The notes under the pieces are model-generated. The model saw nothing but the letters and a program-made list of their open reading frames with translations, was not told the origin of the DNA and made no database searches. This document shows positions 15,217 to 60,894 of a DNA stretch of 64,000 nt, piece after piece. The DNA lies in the NCBI GenBank assembly GCA_017398595.1, contig JAFQFR010000020.1, positions 9,196-73,195 on the forward strand. The letters are read 5' to 3'. This stretch comes from Clostridia bacterium (GTDB lineage Bacteria > Bacillota > Clostridia > Oscillospirales > CAG-272). Every line of letters starts with the position of its first letter. Position 1 is the stretch's first letter. A program made the position numbers and the translations under genes.

Positions 15217-17166
15217 TTAATTCTTCTTTTTGAAAATCACTGCAGCAATTCCGACAACCGCAACCACTGCAATAACAATGCCAACGATCAAAACAACATT
15301 GGCGCCGCCTTCCACTTGTGTAGTCGCAGGAGCAACAGTTGTGGCAGGTGTATCTGTTACCGCAGGCGCTGCAGCCGTCTCGGAAGCAGTCGTTGTTTCT
15401 GCTGAAGCAGCCGTCGTAACTACGGGCGCTGCAGTAGTCTCCGCAGGGGCTGCGGTCGTCTCGGGAACAGCAGAAGTCTCTGCCGGAGCAGCTGTGGTCA
15501 CTGCGGGAACCGTACCGGTCGCAGCAGTGACTGCCGTGGTAACTGCGGGCGCTGCGGTGGTCGCAGCAGTCGTCTCTGCGGGTGCTGTAGTAGTCTCTGC
15601 CGGAGCCGCGGTCGTCTCTGTGGGAGCGACGGTAACGGCAGGAATGCTGATCTCCCCTACGATCTCTGCGTTGGGATGATAGCCTGCATTCAAGAGAACT
15701 GCCTCTTCACCATATACCGTAACCTTGAGATTGTCAAAACCGGTATTATCCAGCGAAACCAGGCTGTCCATAGCCGCACGCATGCGGAAGCCGAAAGAAC
15801 CGGTGGGCCATTCTGCGGTGACCTGCGTATCCGTCCAGATCACATCGTTACTGCCGACAGCAGTGATCGTATAGATCATCATACCGTCTGCACACTCAAC
15901 TTTAAGATGATAGTCTCCGCCGGGATTCAGAAGAGGTTCGCCGACTGTCAAGCTACCTCCCCAGCCGCCTTGCCAATCACAATAACCGGTCGCACCCTTG
16001 GTGCCGTCATTGGAAATGAAAGAAAGATATCCATAGAAAGAGGTCGCGGTGTCACTGTCTGCCTGCGACAGATCAGCGTGCGTGATCACGCCGGATGCCG
16101 TCTGCGAATTGTGAACATCGACTTCCAACGTGTAATTCTGCAACAGATTTGCATCGTGATTTCCGGAATACAGAATAAAAGTGAAGTTGCCGGTCTCTTC
16201 AAAGCCGGTCGTCTTCGCGCTGTAATACAGGCGTCCGTCCTTGATCGTCCATTCGCCGCGATACTGCGTAAAATCCGCGATCGTAGCAGGATCCGAGAAA
16301 TCATTCTCGTAGAATACATATTCCGTCTTGGTTGCGTCCAGCTTGGAAGCTTCCACCTTTACGACCTCGGGAACAGTTACTTCGATCGCCTCGGTAACCT
16401 TGGGAACGATAACATTCGAGGCAACGCCGGGCTTGTAATCCGCAAGAGACTTACCGGCTGCAAGCCAATCGCCGACTTCACCGATAGCAGTGATCTTGAG
16501 ATTGTCAAAGCCGAGAACACCAAGGTTGATCAAGCCGGATTGCATGATCGCAGCACGGAAACCAAACGAGCCGTACGCCCACTCATCATTGTCGAGCTCG
16601 ATCGTGTACAGCTCACTGCCGGTATTCAGATCGGACATTATATATGTAATATGGGTTCCCTCATAGGTTACCTTGAGATGCAGGTTGGCACCGGGATTGG
16701 TCACTGCGGGGCTGACGTGCAAATTTCCCGCATATGCACCAAGACCGTTGCCGCGACCGAACGCACTCTTAGTACCGTTGTTGCTGAGAAATGCTATGTA
16801 GCCGTACCAGCCGTTCTCCGTTTCCGCCTGCGCCTGCGTGATATCGCAACGAGACATCAGACACGCTGCAGATTGTGTATTCATCAGATCCACTTCTGCA
16901 ATATAGTCGGTCAGATTCATAACAGCAGGATCCGCAGTGTACAGCATGAACGCAAATTTACTCAGGTCTTCAACATCGCCCGGTCCAACCAGCATTAACT
17001 GTCCGTCAATAATATCCCATTCGCCGCGATACTGCGTAAAATCGGAAAGTGTCTTCGGATCCGAGAAGTCGTTTTCGTAATATACATACTCTGCCGCACC
17101 CACGGTCATAGCCATGCCGCATACGAGCAGGATCGATGCAATTACGATGGTCAAAATTTTTTTCAT
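15217..17166 (-). CDS. Secreted, membrane-tethered protein B (paralog of A)
   Basis: I trimmed the start to ATG 17166 (MKKILTIVIASILLVCGMAMTVGA, GGAGGT RBS). The two-domain architecture matches A, with shared blocks ITAIGEVGDWLAAGKSLADY and VTVYGEEAVLLNAGYHPNAEIVG. Tail is VEGGANVVLIVGIVIAVVAVVGIAAVIFKKKN. Confidence 0.85.
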   Translation of the reverse strand: MKKILTIVIASILLVCGMAMTVGAAEYVYYENDFSDPKTLSDFTQYRGEWDIIDGQLMLVGPGDVEDLSKFAFMLYTADPAVMNLTDYIAEVDLMNTQSAACLMSRCDITQAQAETENGWYGYIAFLSNNGTKSAFGRGNGLGAYAGNLHVSPAVTNPGANLHLKVTYEGTHITYIMSDLNTGSELYTIELDNDEWAYGSFGFRAAIMQSGLINLGVLGFDNLKITAIGEVGDWLAAGKSLADYKPGVASNVIVPKVTEAIEVTVPEVVKVEASKLDATKTEYVFYENDFSDPATIADFTQYRGEWTIKDGRLYYSAKTTGFEETGNFTFILYSGNHDANLLQNYTLEVDVHNSQTASGVITHADLSQADSDTATSFYGYLSFISNDGTKGATGYCDWQGGWGGSLTVGEPLLNPGGDYHLKVECADGMMIYTITAVGSNDVIWTDTQVTAEWPTGSFGFRMRAAMDSLVSLDNTGFDNLKVTVYGEEAVLLNAGYHPNAEIVGEISIPAVTVAPTETTAAPAETTTAPAETTAATTAAPAVTTAVTAATGTVPAVTTAAPAETSAVPETTAAPAETTAAPVVTTAASAETTTASETAAAPAVTDTPATTVAPATTQVEGGANVVLIVGIVIAVVAVVGIAAVIFKKKN

Positions 17167-26513: not shown

Positions 26514-26880
26514 GGGGGCGTAAAGGTTTCGACGGGGATTTTGAGGTATGATAAGCGGGTAGAGGTCGGGGATCCTCTCTAAAAGCTCCAACTTAAAATT
26601 AAACGCTAACGATAACGTAGCACTGGCAGCGTAAGCTGTGCCGCTGCTTTTTCAAGCAGCCCGTCAGACCGTTGAGGACCACGGCTTCGGATCTGGCGTC
26701 ATGCAGTGGTAAATGTGCACCGCCCGTTTGCTTTTGAAGCGGTCATAAAGAAAAAAGCTACCAAACCGTTACCCCCGTGCACCGGGGTGCGGCGCGGGAA
26801 ATCTTAAAGGTGTCCTGCACCCGGAGAAAGTTATATCAAGGGATTTTCGGACGGGGGTTCGATTCCCCCCGCCTCCACCA
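26514..26880 (+). ncRNA. ssrA: tmRNA (SsrA)
   Basis: The 5' end GGGGGCGTAAAGGTTTCGACGGGG pairs with the 3' end CGCCTCCACCA, including the G3-U pair. T-arm is GGGGGTTCGATTCCCCC. The tag reading frame is 26605-26634: gct aac gat aac gta gca ctg gca gcg taa, giving ANDNVALAA. Confidence 0.95.
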
Positions 26881-27041: not shown

Positions 27042-27066
27042 CAACTAAATCCACCCTTACGGGTGG

Positions 27067-27170
27067 GTGAAATATTGCTTCGCAATGTGAAATACGCCTG
27101 CGGCGTGTGAAATCGCTGCGGCGGTGGGTGGATTTAATTTCACATTTTGCCGCAAGGCAAAATATTTCAC
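27067..27170. repeat. Phased GTGAAAT heptamer array (3 direct copies at exactly 20-bp spacing, 1 degenerate, 2 inverted)
   Basis: GTGAAAT at 27067, 27087 and 27107. GTGGATT at 27128. ATTTCAC at 27137 and 27164. Each unit carries a different short GC hairpin (attgc-ttc-gcaat, acgcc-tgc-ggcgt, ttgcc-gcaa-ggcaa). Confidence 0.8.
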
Positions 27171-57429: not shown

Positions 57430-59484
57430 ATGTTCTCTGTACAGTACGAAAATCAAAAATTCACACTCGGCGAAGGCACAAATGCCGTCATTACGCTCTG
57501 CCCCGCCAAGATCGAATGCAACGGTAAAGAAATTACCGGTACGGCAGTTTATGACCTTGAGAAAGGTGAGATCTGCACAAAGATCGCCTCGCTCACGGTG
57601 CGCGATACATATACCAATGCAGGAGACGGACTCTATAAGGTACTCCGCGTGATCGAAAACGGCGGTACGAACACACTCACCTTCCGCGATATTTTCGAGG
57701 TGCAGACGGCGTTTGCGCCCGCGCGCTACCTCATTCCCTGTGTCAACTACAACGGCAACGACGGATGCCGTGAAAATACGCCGACAGGTCTGACACGCGA
57801 CGGCGAGGCGTGGATCTTTGCCTACGACCGCACGGGCATTCCCGCCTGCACGCTCTGCGAGAACAAAAACTTCGGCAGCGCGATCTTCGCCGCCGACGAC
57901 TCGGAAAGCTCGCTGCGCTCCGCCTGCTCGCTCGTGAAAAACGCAAACGGAACCTTTACCCAGCGCATCTATCACCCCGTCGTAGAAGCGCCCTACACCT
58001 ATTCAAGCAAAAACATCCTCACCGAGCGCTATGACGAATACACCACGCTGAAACCCGGCGAAACCTTCACCGCCGCGATGTACGTTTTTGCCTGTGTGCC
58101 CATGTATGAAAACTACGCAGCGGCAAATCTGCTCGACCACGCGGCAGATGTTTTCAGCCTTGCACTCGATCCCTGTCTCACACCGAAGCAAGTCTGGGAT
58201 CTCGGCATTGACTATGCCAAAGCGCTGCTCTACGACTACAAGGGGCACAAAATGATCATCACCCACTTCGCGCCCCGCCTGTTCCGTTCGCAACACGGCG
58301 CGGCGATCACCCCCGAGGAGATGCAGCGCAGACTGCGCGATCCCTATTACACCGAGATCGGACGCTTTGACGAGCGCTTCGAGATGGGCTGGGCAGACCA
58401 GGGACTCCTCAACGCGCGCATGCTCGCCGCCGACGCGATCGAACGCGGCGACAAAGAAATGCTGGATACGGCAATCGGCATTTTCGAATCCTGGGCAGAT
58501 AAGCAGCAGAAAAACGGACTGCTGCGCACTCAGTTCCAGCAGTACTACGAAGCCGAAGCCTACGATTTCGCCAATCCCGATGTCTGCAACTTCGGCTGGG
58601 GCGCAGCAGAAATGTCGAGAATGTACACGATGCTCCGCGAGCACGGCATCGAAAAGCCGAAATTCCGCGACTTCGCCGTCAAGCTCTGTGACTTCTTCTG
58701 CGAGCACTACTCGGATAAATACGGCTTCGGCAAGTCCTGGACGCTCGAGGGCGAATGCGTCATGCCAAACGGATCCATCGGCGGCTTCTTGGCTCTCGGC
58801 ATGCTCGAGACCTACCGCGTAACGAAAGATAAAAAATATCTCGACACCGCGATCAAAGCATGCAACTTCTACTACAACCGCGACCTTGACAAGTTTATCT
58901 GCTCCGCGGGCGCGCTCGACTGCCAAAGCATCGACAAGGAGACTGCGTACCCCTTCATCTATGTATCACTGATCCTCTTTGAGGAAACGGGCGAACAGAT
59001 CTACCTCGACCGCGCAAAGAAAGCGGCATACTACTTCTTCTCCTGGGCATTCCACTACGACGTGCTCTACGGCGAGGACAGCGAGTTCACCCAGTACGGC
59101 TACCACACCAAGGGCGGCACCGCGATCTCGACCGAGCACCACGCCATCGATTCCTGGGGCTCAGCTGCCGTCACACCGTTCTTGCTCCTCGCGCACTACA
59201 CGGGCGATGACCGCTGGGTAAAGCGTGCGCACGCCATGTGGGCAAACGCCATTCAGGGTATCGCATCCGAGGACAATCGCACATTCCACGGGCAGATGCG
59301 CCCCCTCGGCTCGCAAAATGAAGGCTTCTTCCAGTGCCGCTGGACGAAGTACCGCCCCACCTGCGAGGAGCGCGGTCACTACAATGACTGTCTCTGCGCA
59401 TGGTCGGGCGCGTACCGCATGATGACGCTGTATGATCAGAAAGTAAACGAAAAAGTGAAAGATATGTTTTTGGAGAGAAAGTAA
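57430..59484 (+). CDS. Uncharacterised 684-aa cytoplasmic protein, C-terminal half probably an alpha/alpha-toroid (possible glycoside hydrolase or lyase)
   Basis: AAAGGAG RBS and no signal peptide. The C-terminal half is helix-rich with W/Y/H-rich blocks (YYFFSWAFHYDVLYG, STEHHAIDSWGSAAV). The fold call is only an impression. Confidence 0.4.
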   Translation: MFSVQYENQKFTLGEGTNAVITLCPAKIECNGKEITGTAVYDLEKGEICTKIASLTVRDTYTNAGDGLYKVLRVIENGGTNTLTFRDIFEVQTAFAPARYLIPCVNYNGNDGCRENTPTGLTRDGEAWIFAYDRTGIPACTLCENKNFGSAIFAADDSESSLRSACSLVKNANGTFTQRIYHPVVEAPYTYSSKNILTERYDEYTTLKPGETFTAAMYVFACVPMYENYAAANLLDHAADVFSLALDPCLTPKQVWDLGIDYAKALLYDYKGHKMIITHFAPRLFRSQHGAAITPEEMQRRLRDPYYTEIGRFDERFEMGWADQGLLNARMLAADAIERGDKEMLDTAIGIFESWADKQQKNGLLRTQFQQYYEAEAYDFANPDVCNFGWGAAEMSRMYTMLREHGIEKPKFRDFAVKLCDFFCEHYSDKYGFGKSWTLEGECVMPNGSIGGFLALGMLETYRVTKDKKYLDTAIKACNFYYNRDLDKFICSAGALDCQSIDKETAYPFIYVSLILFEETGEQIYLDRAKKAAYYFFSWAFHYDVLYGEDSEFTQYGYHTKGGTAISTEHHAIDSWGSAAVTPFLLLAHYTGDDRWVKRAHAMWANAIQGIASEDNRTFHGQMRPLGSQNEGFFQCRWTKYRPTCEERGHYNDCLCAWSGAYRMMTLYDQKVNEKVKDMFLERK

Positions 59485-59497
59485 ATGGCATCGAAAG

Positions 59498-59676
59498 TCC
59501 CTCATCCGTCACCTTACGGTGACAGCTTCCCCCAGTTTAATATGTACATAGCCATAACAAAATCTATTGGGGAAGCCTGTTTGCAGCACCATTCAAGCCT
59601 TCCCCAAAGCACTATGCTATGGCTGCAAAGATAGAAGAACGGGGGAAGGTGTCGCCGGACGGCGACGGATGAGGGA
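59498..59676. repeat. 179-nt nested palindrome / structured element (35-bp imperfect terminal inverted repeats)
   Basis: Stems are ccctcatccgtc/gacggatgaggg, cttccccc/gggggaag, agccata/tatggct and ttggggaag/cttccccaa. There are also two arm hairpins, gtcacc-ttac-ggtgac and gtcgcc-ggac-ggcgac. Confidence 0.8.
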
Positions 59677-59709
59677 ATCAATTATTGCAATATTTTTTGT
59701 CATAAGGTG

Positions 59710-59738
59710 TTGACAAAGCGGCAAAGATGTATTACAAT
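59710..59738 (+). promoter_or_regulatory. Sigma-A promoter of the lysine-biosynthesis operon
   Basis: Consensus TTGACA (59710-59715), a 17-nt spacer, then TACAAT (59733-59738). Confidence 0.7.
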
Positions 59739-59744
59739 CACTAC

Positions 59745-59915
59745 AAATGGTAGAGGCGCGTTGTGTCGGGAGTAGCCATGATGTCAAAGATTTTGCAGAT
59801 CGTTGTCATGGTAAAAGAGGCAGACGCCGAAGGCGGCAAAGCAAATTGCCGTTCTGGTCGTACATAATAAGATGTGTATGACTGTCGCTTGTAAAAGCGG
59901 AGGGCTATCGGTTAA
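59745..59915 (+). promoter_or_regulatory. Lysine riboswitch (L-box) aptamer
   Basis: Conserved L-box strings in order: GTAGAGGCGC, GGGAGTAG, GCCGAAGG, CTGGTC, GACTGTC, GGAGGGCTATC. Lies upstream of dapA-dapB-lysA. Confidence 0.85.
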
Positions 59916-59953
59916 TAGATTTGGAAAATTTTTTAAGCCAAAATATATTTACC

Positions 59954-59988
59954 AAACAGCCGATCCGCAGGATCGGCTGTTTTTTCTA
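59954..59988 (+). terminator. Riboswitch expression-platform terminator
   Basis: aacagccgatcc-gca-ggatcggctgtt followed by tttttt, 20 nt before the dapA ATG. Confidence 0.8.
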
Positions 59989-60006
59989 CCATAGAAAGGA
60001 TAAACT

Positions 60007-60894
60007 ATGAAAAAGACTGTATTCAAGGGCGTTGCAACCGCGCTCATCACTCCCCTTACCGAAAACGGGATCGATTTTGATGCATTCGGCAAGCTGATCG
60101 ACTGGCAGATCGACGAGGGCATCAACGCGCTGGTCGTCTGCGGCACCACGGGCGAGGCATCCACCCTCACCGATGAGGAGCACCGCGCGGCAATTTCCTT
60201 TGCCGTTAAGCGTGCTGCAGGACGTGTGCCGATCATCGCGGGCACGGGTTCCAACGACACCGCATATGCGCTCGAACTGACGCACCACGCGTGCGAAGCG
60301 GGCGCTGACGCTATCCTCGTTGCCACCCCCTACTACAACAAGGCAACCCAAAAGGGACTCATTCAAATGTACACGGCGATCGCCGACGCCAGCACCGTGC
60401 CGGTCATCCTCTACAATGTTCCCTCCCGCACGGGCGTAAACATTGAGCCTACCACTTATCAGGCACTCGCCGAGCATCCCAATATCGTTGCGATCAAGGA
60501 AGCCAACGGAAATATCTCGAAAATTGTCGAAACCATGTCGCTCGTACATGACAAGCTCGACCTGTATTCGGGCAACGACGATCAGATCGTGCCTCTCATG
60601 TCGCTCGGCGGCATCGGCGTGATCTCGGTCATCTCCAATCTTCTGCCTAAGGAGACCGTCGAGCTTACCGACCGCTTCTTTGCAGGCGACATCAAGGGCG
60701 CCGCAGAGCTGCAATACAAGTATCACTACCTGATCGACGCGCTGTTCAGCGAAGTCAACCCCATTCCCGTGAAGGCGGCAATGGCAGCTATGGGCTTCTG
60801 CGAAGACTACCTGCGCCTGCCCCTTACGCCGATGGAAGAAAAGACCAAGGCTGTCCTGCTGCAGGCAATGCGCGACGTCGGAATCGAGGTTTAA
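60007..60894 (+). CDS. dapA: 4-hydroxy-tetrahydrodipicolinate synthase
   Basis: 295 aa with VALITPLTENGIDFDAFGKLIDWQIDEGINALVVCGTTGEASTLT and IVAIKEANGN (active-site Lys). Confidence 0.95.
   Translation: MKKTVFKGVATALITPLTENGIDFDAFGKLIDWQIDEGINALVVCGTTGEASTLTDEEHRAAISFAVKRAAGRVPIIAGTGSNDTAYALELTHHACEAGADAILVATPYYNKATQKGLIQMYTAIADASTVPVILYNVPSRTGVNIEPTTYQALAEHPNIVAIKEANGNISKIVETMSLVHDKLDLYSGNDDQIVPLMSLGGIGVISVISNLLPKETVELTDRFFAGDIKGAAELQYKYHYLIDALFSEVNPIPVKAAMAAMGFCEDYLRLPLTPMEEKTKAVLLQAMRDVGIEV

Follow-up and report, generated by a model that had tools for sequence, protein, structure and literature searches.

A probable REP-like tail-to-tail hairpin dimer inserted between a GH76-like gene and a lysine riboswitch operon in a Clostridia bacterium

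The 179-nt imperfect palindrome at positions 59498-59676 of the window (the whole 64,000-nt stretch of a Clostridia bacterium contig that was analysed) is probably a tail-to-tail (TT) dimer of a REP-like dispersed repeat that has spread as non-autonomous DNA, and not a dedicated regulatory RNA. Hairpins of this repeat are maintained by strictly Watson-Crick compensatory change, and the window copy, a lineage-specific insertion, lies between the promoter of a lysine-riboswitch operon and the stop codon of the GH76-like gene before it. An initial annotation had described a single elaborate nested structure; the element instead comprises two inverted copies of a dispersed module of about 50 nt. 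Each module carries a 5′ tag, CCCCTCATC[C/A], followed by a first hairpin, H1 (GTCnnn-loop-nnnGAC), an A, and a second hairpin, H2 ([C/G]CTTCCCC-loop-GGGGAAG[G/C]). The features of the element and its surroundings are listed below, with scores from a covariance model, R1, which was built from nine natural Clostridia copies only.

59498-59676, no strand assigned: whole element, a TT dimer of two double-hairpin modules forming an imperfect palindrome; both halves match R1 end to end
59496-59580, plus strand: module A, with tag, H1, A and H2 with an enlarged 36-nt loop (R1 57.0 bits, E 2.6e-12, model positions 1-53; nhmmer E 6.4e-9)
59498-59507, plus strand: 5′ tag of module A, TCCCTCATCC, partner of 59667-59676 in the long-hairpin fold; the tag is conserved in the family
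59508-59523, plus strand: H1 of module A, GTCACC-TTAC-GGTGAC, a variant also present in loci L024, L039 and L069; H1 covaries family-wide
59525-59576, plus strand: H2 of module A, GCTTCCCC (59525-59532) paired with GGGGAAGC (59569-59576), an 8-bp stem with a 36-nt loop (repeat finder, R1)
59594-59678, minus strand: module B, with tag, H1′, A and H2′ with an enlarged loop (R1 61.2 bits, E 2e-13, model positions 1-53; nhmmer E 1.2e-9)
59598-59649, minus strand: H2′ of module B, CCTTCCCC (59598-59605) paired with GGGGAAGG (59642-59649), an 8-bp stem with a 36-nt loop (repeat finder, R1)
59651-59666, minus strand: H1′ of module B, GTCGCC-GGAC-GGCGAC, the most frequent H1 variant among family copies
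59667-59676, minus strand: 5′ tag of module B, TCCCTCATCC on the minus strand and GGATGAGGGA on the plus strand
57430-59484, plus strand: 684-aa gene upstream, weakly matching GH76, with 13 nt between its stop codon and the element
59710-59738, plus strand: sigma-70-type promoter of the lysine operon (TTGACA, 17 nt, TACAAT), conserved in loci L124 and L182; its -35 box lies 33 nt downstream of the element
59743-59915, plus strand: lysine riboswitch upstream of dapA-dapB-lysA (RF00168, 75.9 bits)

The position and sequence of the palindrome were as the initial annotation gave them, downstream of the TAA codon at 59482-59484 that ends the 684-aa ORF. Its first half reads TCCCTCATCC-GTCACC-TTAC-GGTGAC-A-GCTTCCCCC...GGGGAAGC and its second half ...GCCTTCCCC...GGGGGAAGG-T-GTCGCC-GGAC-GGCGAC-GGATGAGGGA. 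An inverted-repeat finder delimits two arms of 81 nt each (59498-59578 and 59596-59676) that are 73% complementary and separated by a 17-nt spacer. The nested palindrome described earlier is present, although its outer perfect stem measures 13 bp instead of the claimed 12. Both arm hairpins were correctly described, with their paired A/G and T/C changes, but a second pair of local hairpins, GCTTCCCC/GGGGAAGC and CCTTCCCC/GGGGAAGG, had been overlooked. CTTCCCC/GGGGAAG thus occurs four times within the element in alternating orientation, so that either half is able to fold alone. As RNA, the element has a minimum free energy of -94.8 kcal/mol against -49.6 +/- 4.1 for shuffled sequences (z -11.0; none of 200 shuffles equal), and as DNA -48.6 kcal/mol (z -8.9). 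The long hairpin is favoured thermodynamically in the window element over a 'cloverleaf' alternative (-76 kcal/mol), in which four local hairpins are joined to a closing stem made by tag-tag pairing.

Related copies were sought with a 25-nt pattern of the tag and arm hairpin, CCCTCATCCGTYRCCNNNCGGYRAC, scanned against 185,579 species genomes. By our own estimate about one match was expected by chance, and at least 112 genome stretches matched. BLAST comparison of the element with the matching loci confines conservation to positions 2-36 and 144-178. H2 trails the tag and H1 in nearly all genuine matches though it lies outside the search pattern, which confirms homology independently. Its stem of 8-9 bp is conserved in sequence (SCTTCCCC/GGGGAAGS), the H1 stem has 6 bp, and the tag is near-invariant and present in essentially all copies of the family. 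Across the loci gathered around tag-plus-H1 matches, about 0.73 Mb in total, R1 returns 337 matches at E<=1 and more than 200 at E<=1e-3; among the latter are the window element's two halves and full-length copies from Caulobacter, which score 50-60 bits. Chance, or a purely local inverted duplication unrelated to other sequences, would fit the unique interior of the element and the one copy in the window; with both halves matching the family model at E of about 1e-12 to 1e-13 and hundreds of related copies elsewhere, this explanation is already refuted and its probability is negligible.

The repeated unit is the module. The central 109 nt of the element, enlarged H2 loops included, have no homolog among all collected loci, and the exact 179-nt unit itself is therefore not demonstrated as repeated. 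BLAST, nhmmer, the covariance model and regular expressions detect no second copy within the 64-kb window, and two matches with three mismatches, at 16657 and 47903, fall in coding sequence and were dismissed as chance. Pattern matches from Agrobacterium were likewise discarded. In L014, L016, L033 and other Agrobacterium/Rhizobium loci, the pattern coincides with sequence coding for the N-terminus of dapE (A-L-I-R-C-P-S-V-T-P, within …ALIRCPSVTP…) without any hairpin logic; this coincidence indicates that the degenerate Y/R positions of the pattern let in false positives. By crude ORF calls nearly all true copies are intergenic, and the clusters found inside ORFs are almost all these chance dapE matches.

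The family is hosted by two distant groups of bacteria. Among Clostridia it occurs in MAGs of HGM11420, UMGS509, Candidatus Anaerofilum faecale, and Ruminococcus and Oscillospiraceae bins, and among Alphaproteobacteria in Caulobacter, Mesorhizobium, Bosea and others, including Rhizobiales. Between Clostridia and Caulobacter or other Alphaproteobacteria, the tag and H2 hardly differ in sequence. Copy density differs widely, from 4-5 per 8 kb in some MAG loci to one dimer per 64 kb in the window. A plasmid collection gave no match to the module; a phage collection gave four unannotated gut 'Bacteriophage sp.' contigs carrying the 35-nt module alone, and IMG/VR gave one matching contig. One unverified gut 'Bacteriophage sp.' sequence (MT836571.1; L185, 330-460) contains a head-to-head (HH) dimer in which H2, GCTTCCCCC-GA-GGGGGAAGC, is followed by TTTTTTG, an arrangement resembling an intrinsic terminator, so some copies may be co-opted. 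In one Clostridia MAG (L052, 6400-7750), modules and longer mosaic repeats of about 200 nt lie between phage-like genes, including a portal-like ORF, which suggests that the repeats populate prophage regions too.

Modules are found as singletons, HH dimers, TT dimers and in tandem. TT dimers of 94-183 nt occur in the window and in L075, L085, L103, L111, L115, L140 and L147, and 25 HH dimers are found in Caulobacter-type loci. The Caulobacter HH dimers span about 120-160 nt and start 4-15 nt past stop codons (L042, L046, L071, L099 and others); they are heterodimers, as the left partner has a different H1 (GCCGC-GAA-GCGG). A metagenome scan added many H1 variants, tandem arrays made of H2 only, and a further subfamily in which H2 has a long loop. 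The H2-only arrays (L147, 926-1102; also L150, L155 and L172) repeat with a period of about 30 nt between two tag-plus-H1 ends, indicating that H2 is able to amplify independently. Members of the long-loop subfamily, on metagenome contigs L139, L141, L146, L160, L163 and L166, contain, within the H2 loop, an inner hairpin that is conserved, ACACCT-GAA-GGTGT; in principle this resembles the enlarged H2 loops of the window element, with unrelated sequence. A different palindromic repeat, GTAGGGGAGGCG...CGCCTCCCCTAC, lies downstream of an 88%-identical ortholog of the 684-aa gene (L122, 4700-4790) and is another dispersed hairpin type of these Clostridia.

These arrangements bear on whether the element is a classical MITE, a deletion derivative of an insertion sequence with a DDE transposase, whose ends of about 35 bp would serve as terminal inverted repeats (TIRs) for cut-and-paste transposition. 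Correia/NEMIS, RUP and ERIC elements have TIRs and target-site duplications, often TA. The window element shares with them its small size (about 100-200 bp), intergenic position, non-autonomy, inverted ends and capacity to give long stem-loop transcripts; conserved inverted ends of about 35 nt around a non-conserved interior, lineage-specific insertion and dimer lengths of 94-183 nt, typical of MITEs, also speak for such an origin. However, target-site duplications are absent at all eight TT dimers examined, the conserved units are hairpins and not plain TIRs, and TIR logic does not predict the single, head-to-head and tandem occurrences of the module. Nor is any full-length element with a transposase between modules found: no transposase is seen among ORFs flanked by inverted modules in pieces of about 8 kb around the copies. 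A classical MITE is therefore very unlikely, and of the MITE-like character suggested by the initial annotation, repetitive DNA of MITE or REP type remains while the classical form with TIRs and target-site duplications does not.

Comparison with related species establishes the window copy as an insertion. In L124/L125 (77% amino acid identity in the upstream gene) and L182 (73%), the order of topoisomerase, GH76-like gene, promoter, lysine riboswitch and dapA is kept, and no module is detected at these orthologous loci of two related species; the same gene order without the module marks the window element as lineage-specific. The distance from the stop codon to the T-run of the promoter is about 205 nt in the window; L124 has about 120 nt there, of unrelated sequence, and L182 has a few. 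The promoter, lysine riboswitch and terminator hairpin before dapA-dapB-lysA are highly conserved in the three species (59710-59990 of the window; L124, 4660-4930; L182), and the DNA immediately upstream of the lysine operon promoter is wholly variable across them.

Within its own species, the element is present in nine of nine strain contigs at 98-100% identity. Of five contigs compared with it, L002 is identical and the other four have 3-4 differences over the 179 nt (1.7-2.2%). At third-codon positions the divergence is 2.2-4.4% for the GH76-like gene, across all five contigs, and 1.7-6.8% for dapA in four of them, L002 being identical there; the promoter, riboswitch and leader show 0-1 differences per 330 nt. 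The single-nucleotide changes in the element weaken its stems and are uncompensated. Drift at a rate like that of third-codon positions, together with these uncompensated changes, indicates that the window copy is under little or no purifying selection.

Across the family, the hairpins themselves are closely maintained. In an alignment of 144 distinct copies that was fitted to the model, from loci ascertained with a pattern fixing the common H1 (both of which inflate apparent conservation), 99.1% of stem cells are standard pairs and 173 cells carry double-sided changes, a number that none of 500 shuffles attains (35.6 +/- 4.3). Changes on both sides are found at 11 of the 14 stem pairs, and pairing drops to 36-69% in slid-partner controls. 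The outer three pairs of H1 (G-C, T-A, C-G) are mostly fixed and the inner three vary freely, giving variants such as GTCACC/GGTGAC, GTCAAC/GTTGAC, GCCCCC/GGGGGC and GTCGGC/GCCGAC, among others. The earlier reading of the paired arm-hairpin changes as a sign of selected structure is sustained for these local hairpins. In other dimers the H1 and H1′ sequences are unrelated and mutual pairing is impossible; what is conserved is thus the local hairpins and not a long nested palindrome. RNA transcribed from one strand would be expected to tolerate G.U pairs and not A.C mismatches. Among 1960 stem cells, G.T is counted 6 times and A.C 8 times, and this strict, strand-symmetric Watson-Crick pairing points to hairpins or cruciforms in DNA rather than in RNA.

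A functional RNA, whether as a 3′ UTR of the 684-aa gene, a terminator, an insulator of the lysine operon, a block to 3′-5′ exonucleases or an sRNA, is an unlikely alternative given this lack of wobble tolerance. Its attraction lies in the placement and stability of the element, which begins 13 nt past a stop codon and folds with a z of -11, and Caulobacter copies are similarly placed behind stop codons. In addition, H2 followed by TTTTTTG in one gut contig has the look of an intrinsic terminator, and REPs are reported to lie for the most part downstream of coding regions and to have a stabilising effect on mRNA (PMC3733652). Against these points, Rfam searched at gathering thresholds gives nothing on the element (in a scan of the whole window) or on 18 related loci, and its permissive E-value mode over 59440-59740 returns spurious look-alikes of plant and animal miRNA precursors alone, far below threshold. 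An intrinsic terminator combines a GC-rich hairpin with an immediate U-tract, whereas the hairpin here is followed by AATCAATTATTGCAATATTTTTTG, the T-run begins 16 nt further downstream, and a terminator scan of 59300-60100 found no site. Relatives without the element retain that T-run along with the promoter region, so the element is not a canonical terminator. Divergent intergenic regions are not clearly avoided by the copies either (6 convergent and 5 divergent by crude ORF calls, a small sample), two related species have the same operon layout without the element, and the window copy drifts as described above. The RNA readings of the initial annotation, namely a large 3′-UTR structure, an unusually elaborate terminator or an sRNA, thus gain no support from the Rfam results, the pairing, the missing U-tract or the near-neutral drift. 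A hammerhead ribozyme was also considered, as CUGAUGAG occurs on the reverse strand of some copies, and was rejected: the position concerned is variable, reading CGGAUGA in the window, a GAAA box is missing, and none of the Rfam hammerhead models matched. Elsewhere in the window, structured RNAs are represented by a tmRNA gene (26514-26880; RF00023, 161 bits) and, about 160 nt later, a Gut-1 RNA (27042-27118; RF01706, 95 bits). Gut-1 is an sRNA motif of unknown function known from gut metagenomes.

A further explanation holds that the module is a host-domesticated, BIME-like site whose hairpins or cruciform are bound by a conserved host factor such as gyrase, a nucleoid protein or polymerase. 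Binding of this kind would account for sequence conservation across phyla, including the near-identity of tag and H2 between Clostridia and Caulobacter beside a freely varying inner H1, and the failure to find a dedicated transposase parallels the CGTC REPs (PMC3733652). It is, however, distinctly unlikely in view of the near-neutral drift of the window copy, the patchy presence of the element, which related species lack at the same site, and the very unequal copy densities among loci.

The preferred reading, a REP-like repeat spread as DNA, would work as follows. The module would spread as non-autonomous DNA in the manner of REPs and REPINs, its hairpins forming in single-stranded DNA, where both they and the 5′ tag would be recognised by an enzyme acting in trans from a gene elsewhere. 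Most plausibly this enzyme would be an HUH/Y1 transposase (RAYT or IS200-type). Such transposases leave no target duplication, and one of them would explain both the tag-plus-hairpin anatomy and the lack of target-site duplications. The neighbours of the copies are unrelated housekeeping genes: among 141 neighbouring ORFs scanned with Pfam, every family is limited to one or two ORFs, and no transposase is among the recurrent families. All-against-all clustering of 1364 ORFs reveals no gene family recurring beside copies, and a crude motif screen with regular expressions found no Y1/HUH ORF in the pieces of about 8 kb around them. In transcripts of the upstream gene the element would form the 3′ end, and any local effect is likely to be incidental at most. 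A hairpin of -95 kcal/mol could impede exonucleases or RNA polymerase, and could in this way shield the 3′ end of the mRNA or reduce transcription running on into the lysine operon.

On this interpretation, the palindrome beside the lysine riboswitch represents an inserted repeat dimer and neither a component of lysine regulation nor a new RNA class. The interest of the family lies in its two-hairpin unit, in the absence of a linked transposase from the loci surveyed and in its nearly identical sequence in two distant bacterial classes; the identity of the factor that copies or binds it would bear on the persistence of REP-type DNA. In the annotation of gut MAGs, the modules give rise to false small ORFs and to strong hairpin signals, and they probably also break the assemblies.

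REPs are usually lineage-specific, and near-identity of the module across Clostridia and Alphaproteobacteria is unusual for them. The initial annotation had allowed for a match to a known repeat family: membership in a repeat family is established, but no name for it was found in Rfam or the literature searched, where string searches for the module sequence returned unrelated primers alone. Tentatively, the module may represent an undescribed REP superfamily, defined by the CCCCTCATC tag and a bipartite H1 and H2 and shared by gut and rumen Clostridia, Caulobacter and Rhizobiales. If so, either a trans-acting enzyme of fixed specificity for single-stranded DNA has spread horizontally or the module is recognised by a universally conserved host factor, and the window copy would be one insertion of a selfish hairpin element that crosses phyla.

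REPs, BIMEs and REPINs are short GC-rich hairpins with a conserved unpaired tag at one end and many intergenic copies; their dimers, HH or TT, lie 20-100 bp apart, can fold into one large hairpin, are often heterodimers with differing stems and show no target duplication (Bertels and Rainey 2011, PMC3116915; PMC3733652). The module agrees with this general description as a short unit in many copies (over 200 R1 matches at E<=1e-3 in 0.73 Mb), extragenic by crude ORF calls, with a compensated hairpin and a conserved unpaired tag, and frequently arranged in HH or TT dimers with variable spacers. It differs in that its tag is neither GTAG nor CGTC, its unit consists of two hairpins side by side, no RAYT gene flanked by the repeat is seen in pieces of about 8 kb, and its hosts include Clostridia, with a sequence common to two distant classes. 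In REPIN-RAYT systems the whole dimer and its spacer form the replicating unit, whereas the central 109 nt of the window element stand alone among the collected loci.

Another comparison is offered by Di Nocera et al. (2013), who described GTAG- and CGTC-tagged REP superfamilies with HH and TT dimers, heterodimers and variable spacers (PMC3733652); Clostridia or Firmicutes are nowhere mentioned there among the hosts of tagged REPs. The unpaired GTAG of the first superfamily is replaced in the module by CCCCTCATC. CGTC REPs occur mainly in Alphaproteobacteria, including C. crescentus, mostly as HH dimers and apparently without a dedicated transposase, and consist of an unpaired CGTC, a stem of 8-9 bp beginning with A-T pairs, a loop of 4-5 nt and a CCA tail (PMC3733652). 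The module resembles them in its alphaproteobacterial hosts, in its HH dimers there, in the absence of a dedicated transposase from the loci surveyed and in the CCGTC that many copies contain at the junction of tag and H1. In the module, however, GTC pairs with GAC in a GC-rich stem of 6 bp, the CCA tail is missing and another hairpin comes after the first. Chen and Shapiro (2003) described CIRs, which, in the summary given in PMC2229807, are intergenic elements of about 110 bp in Caulobacter and Brucella with two inverted-repeat arms and a linker, conserved among Alphaproteobacteria and defined by conserved GANTC methylation sites in the loop. Judged against that description, the module is distinct: GANTC is present in 1 of 25 Caulobacter module dimers, and the window element offers only a GAATC that straddles its right end, at 59675. 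Differing from the GTAG, CGTC and CIR types, the module is REP-dimer-like and stands outside every named REP family tested.
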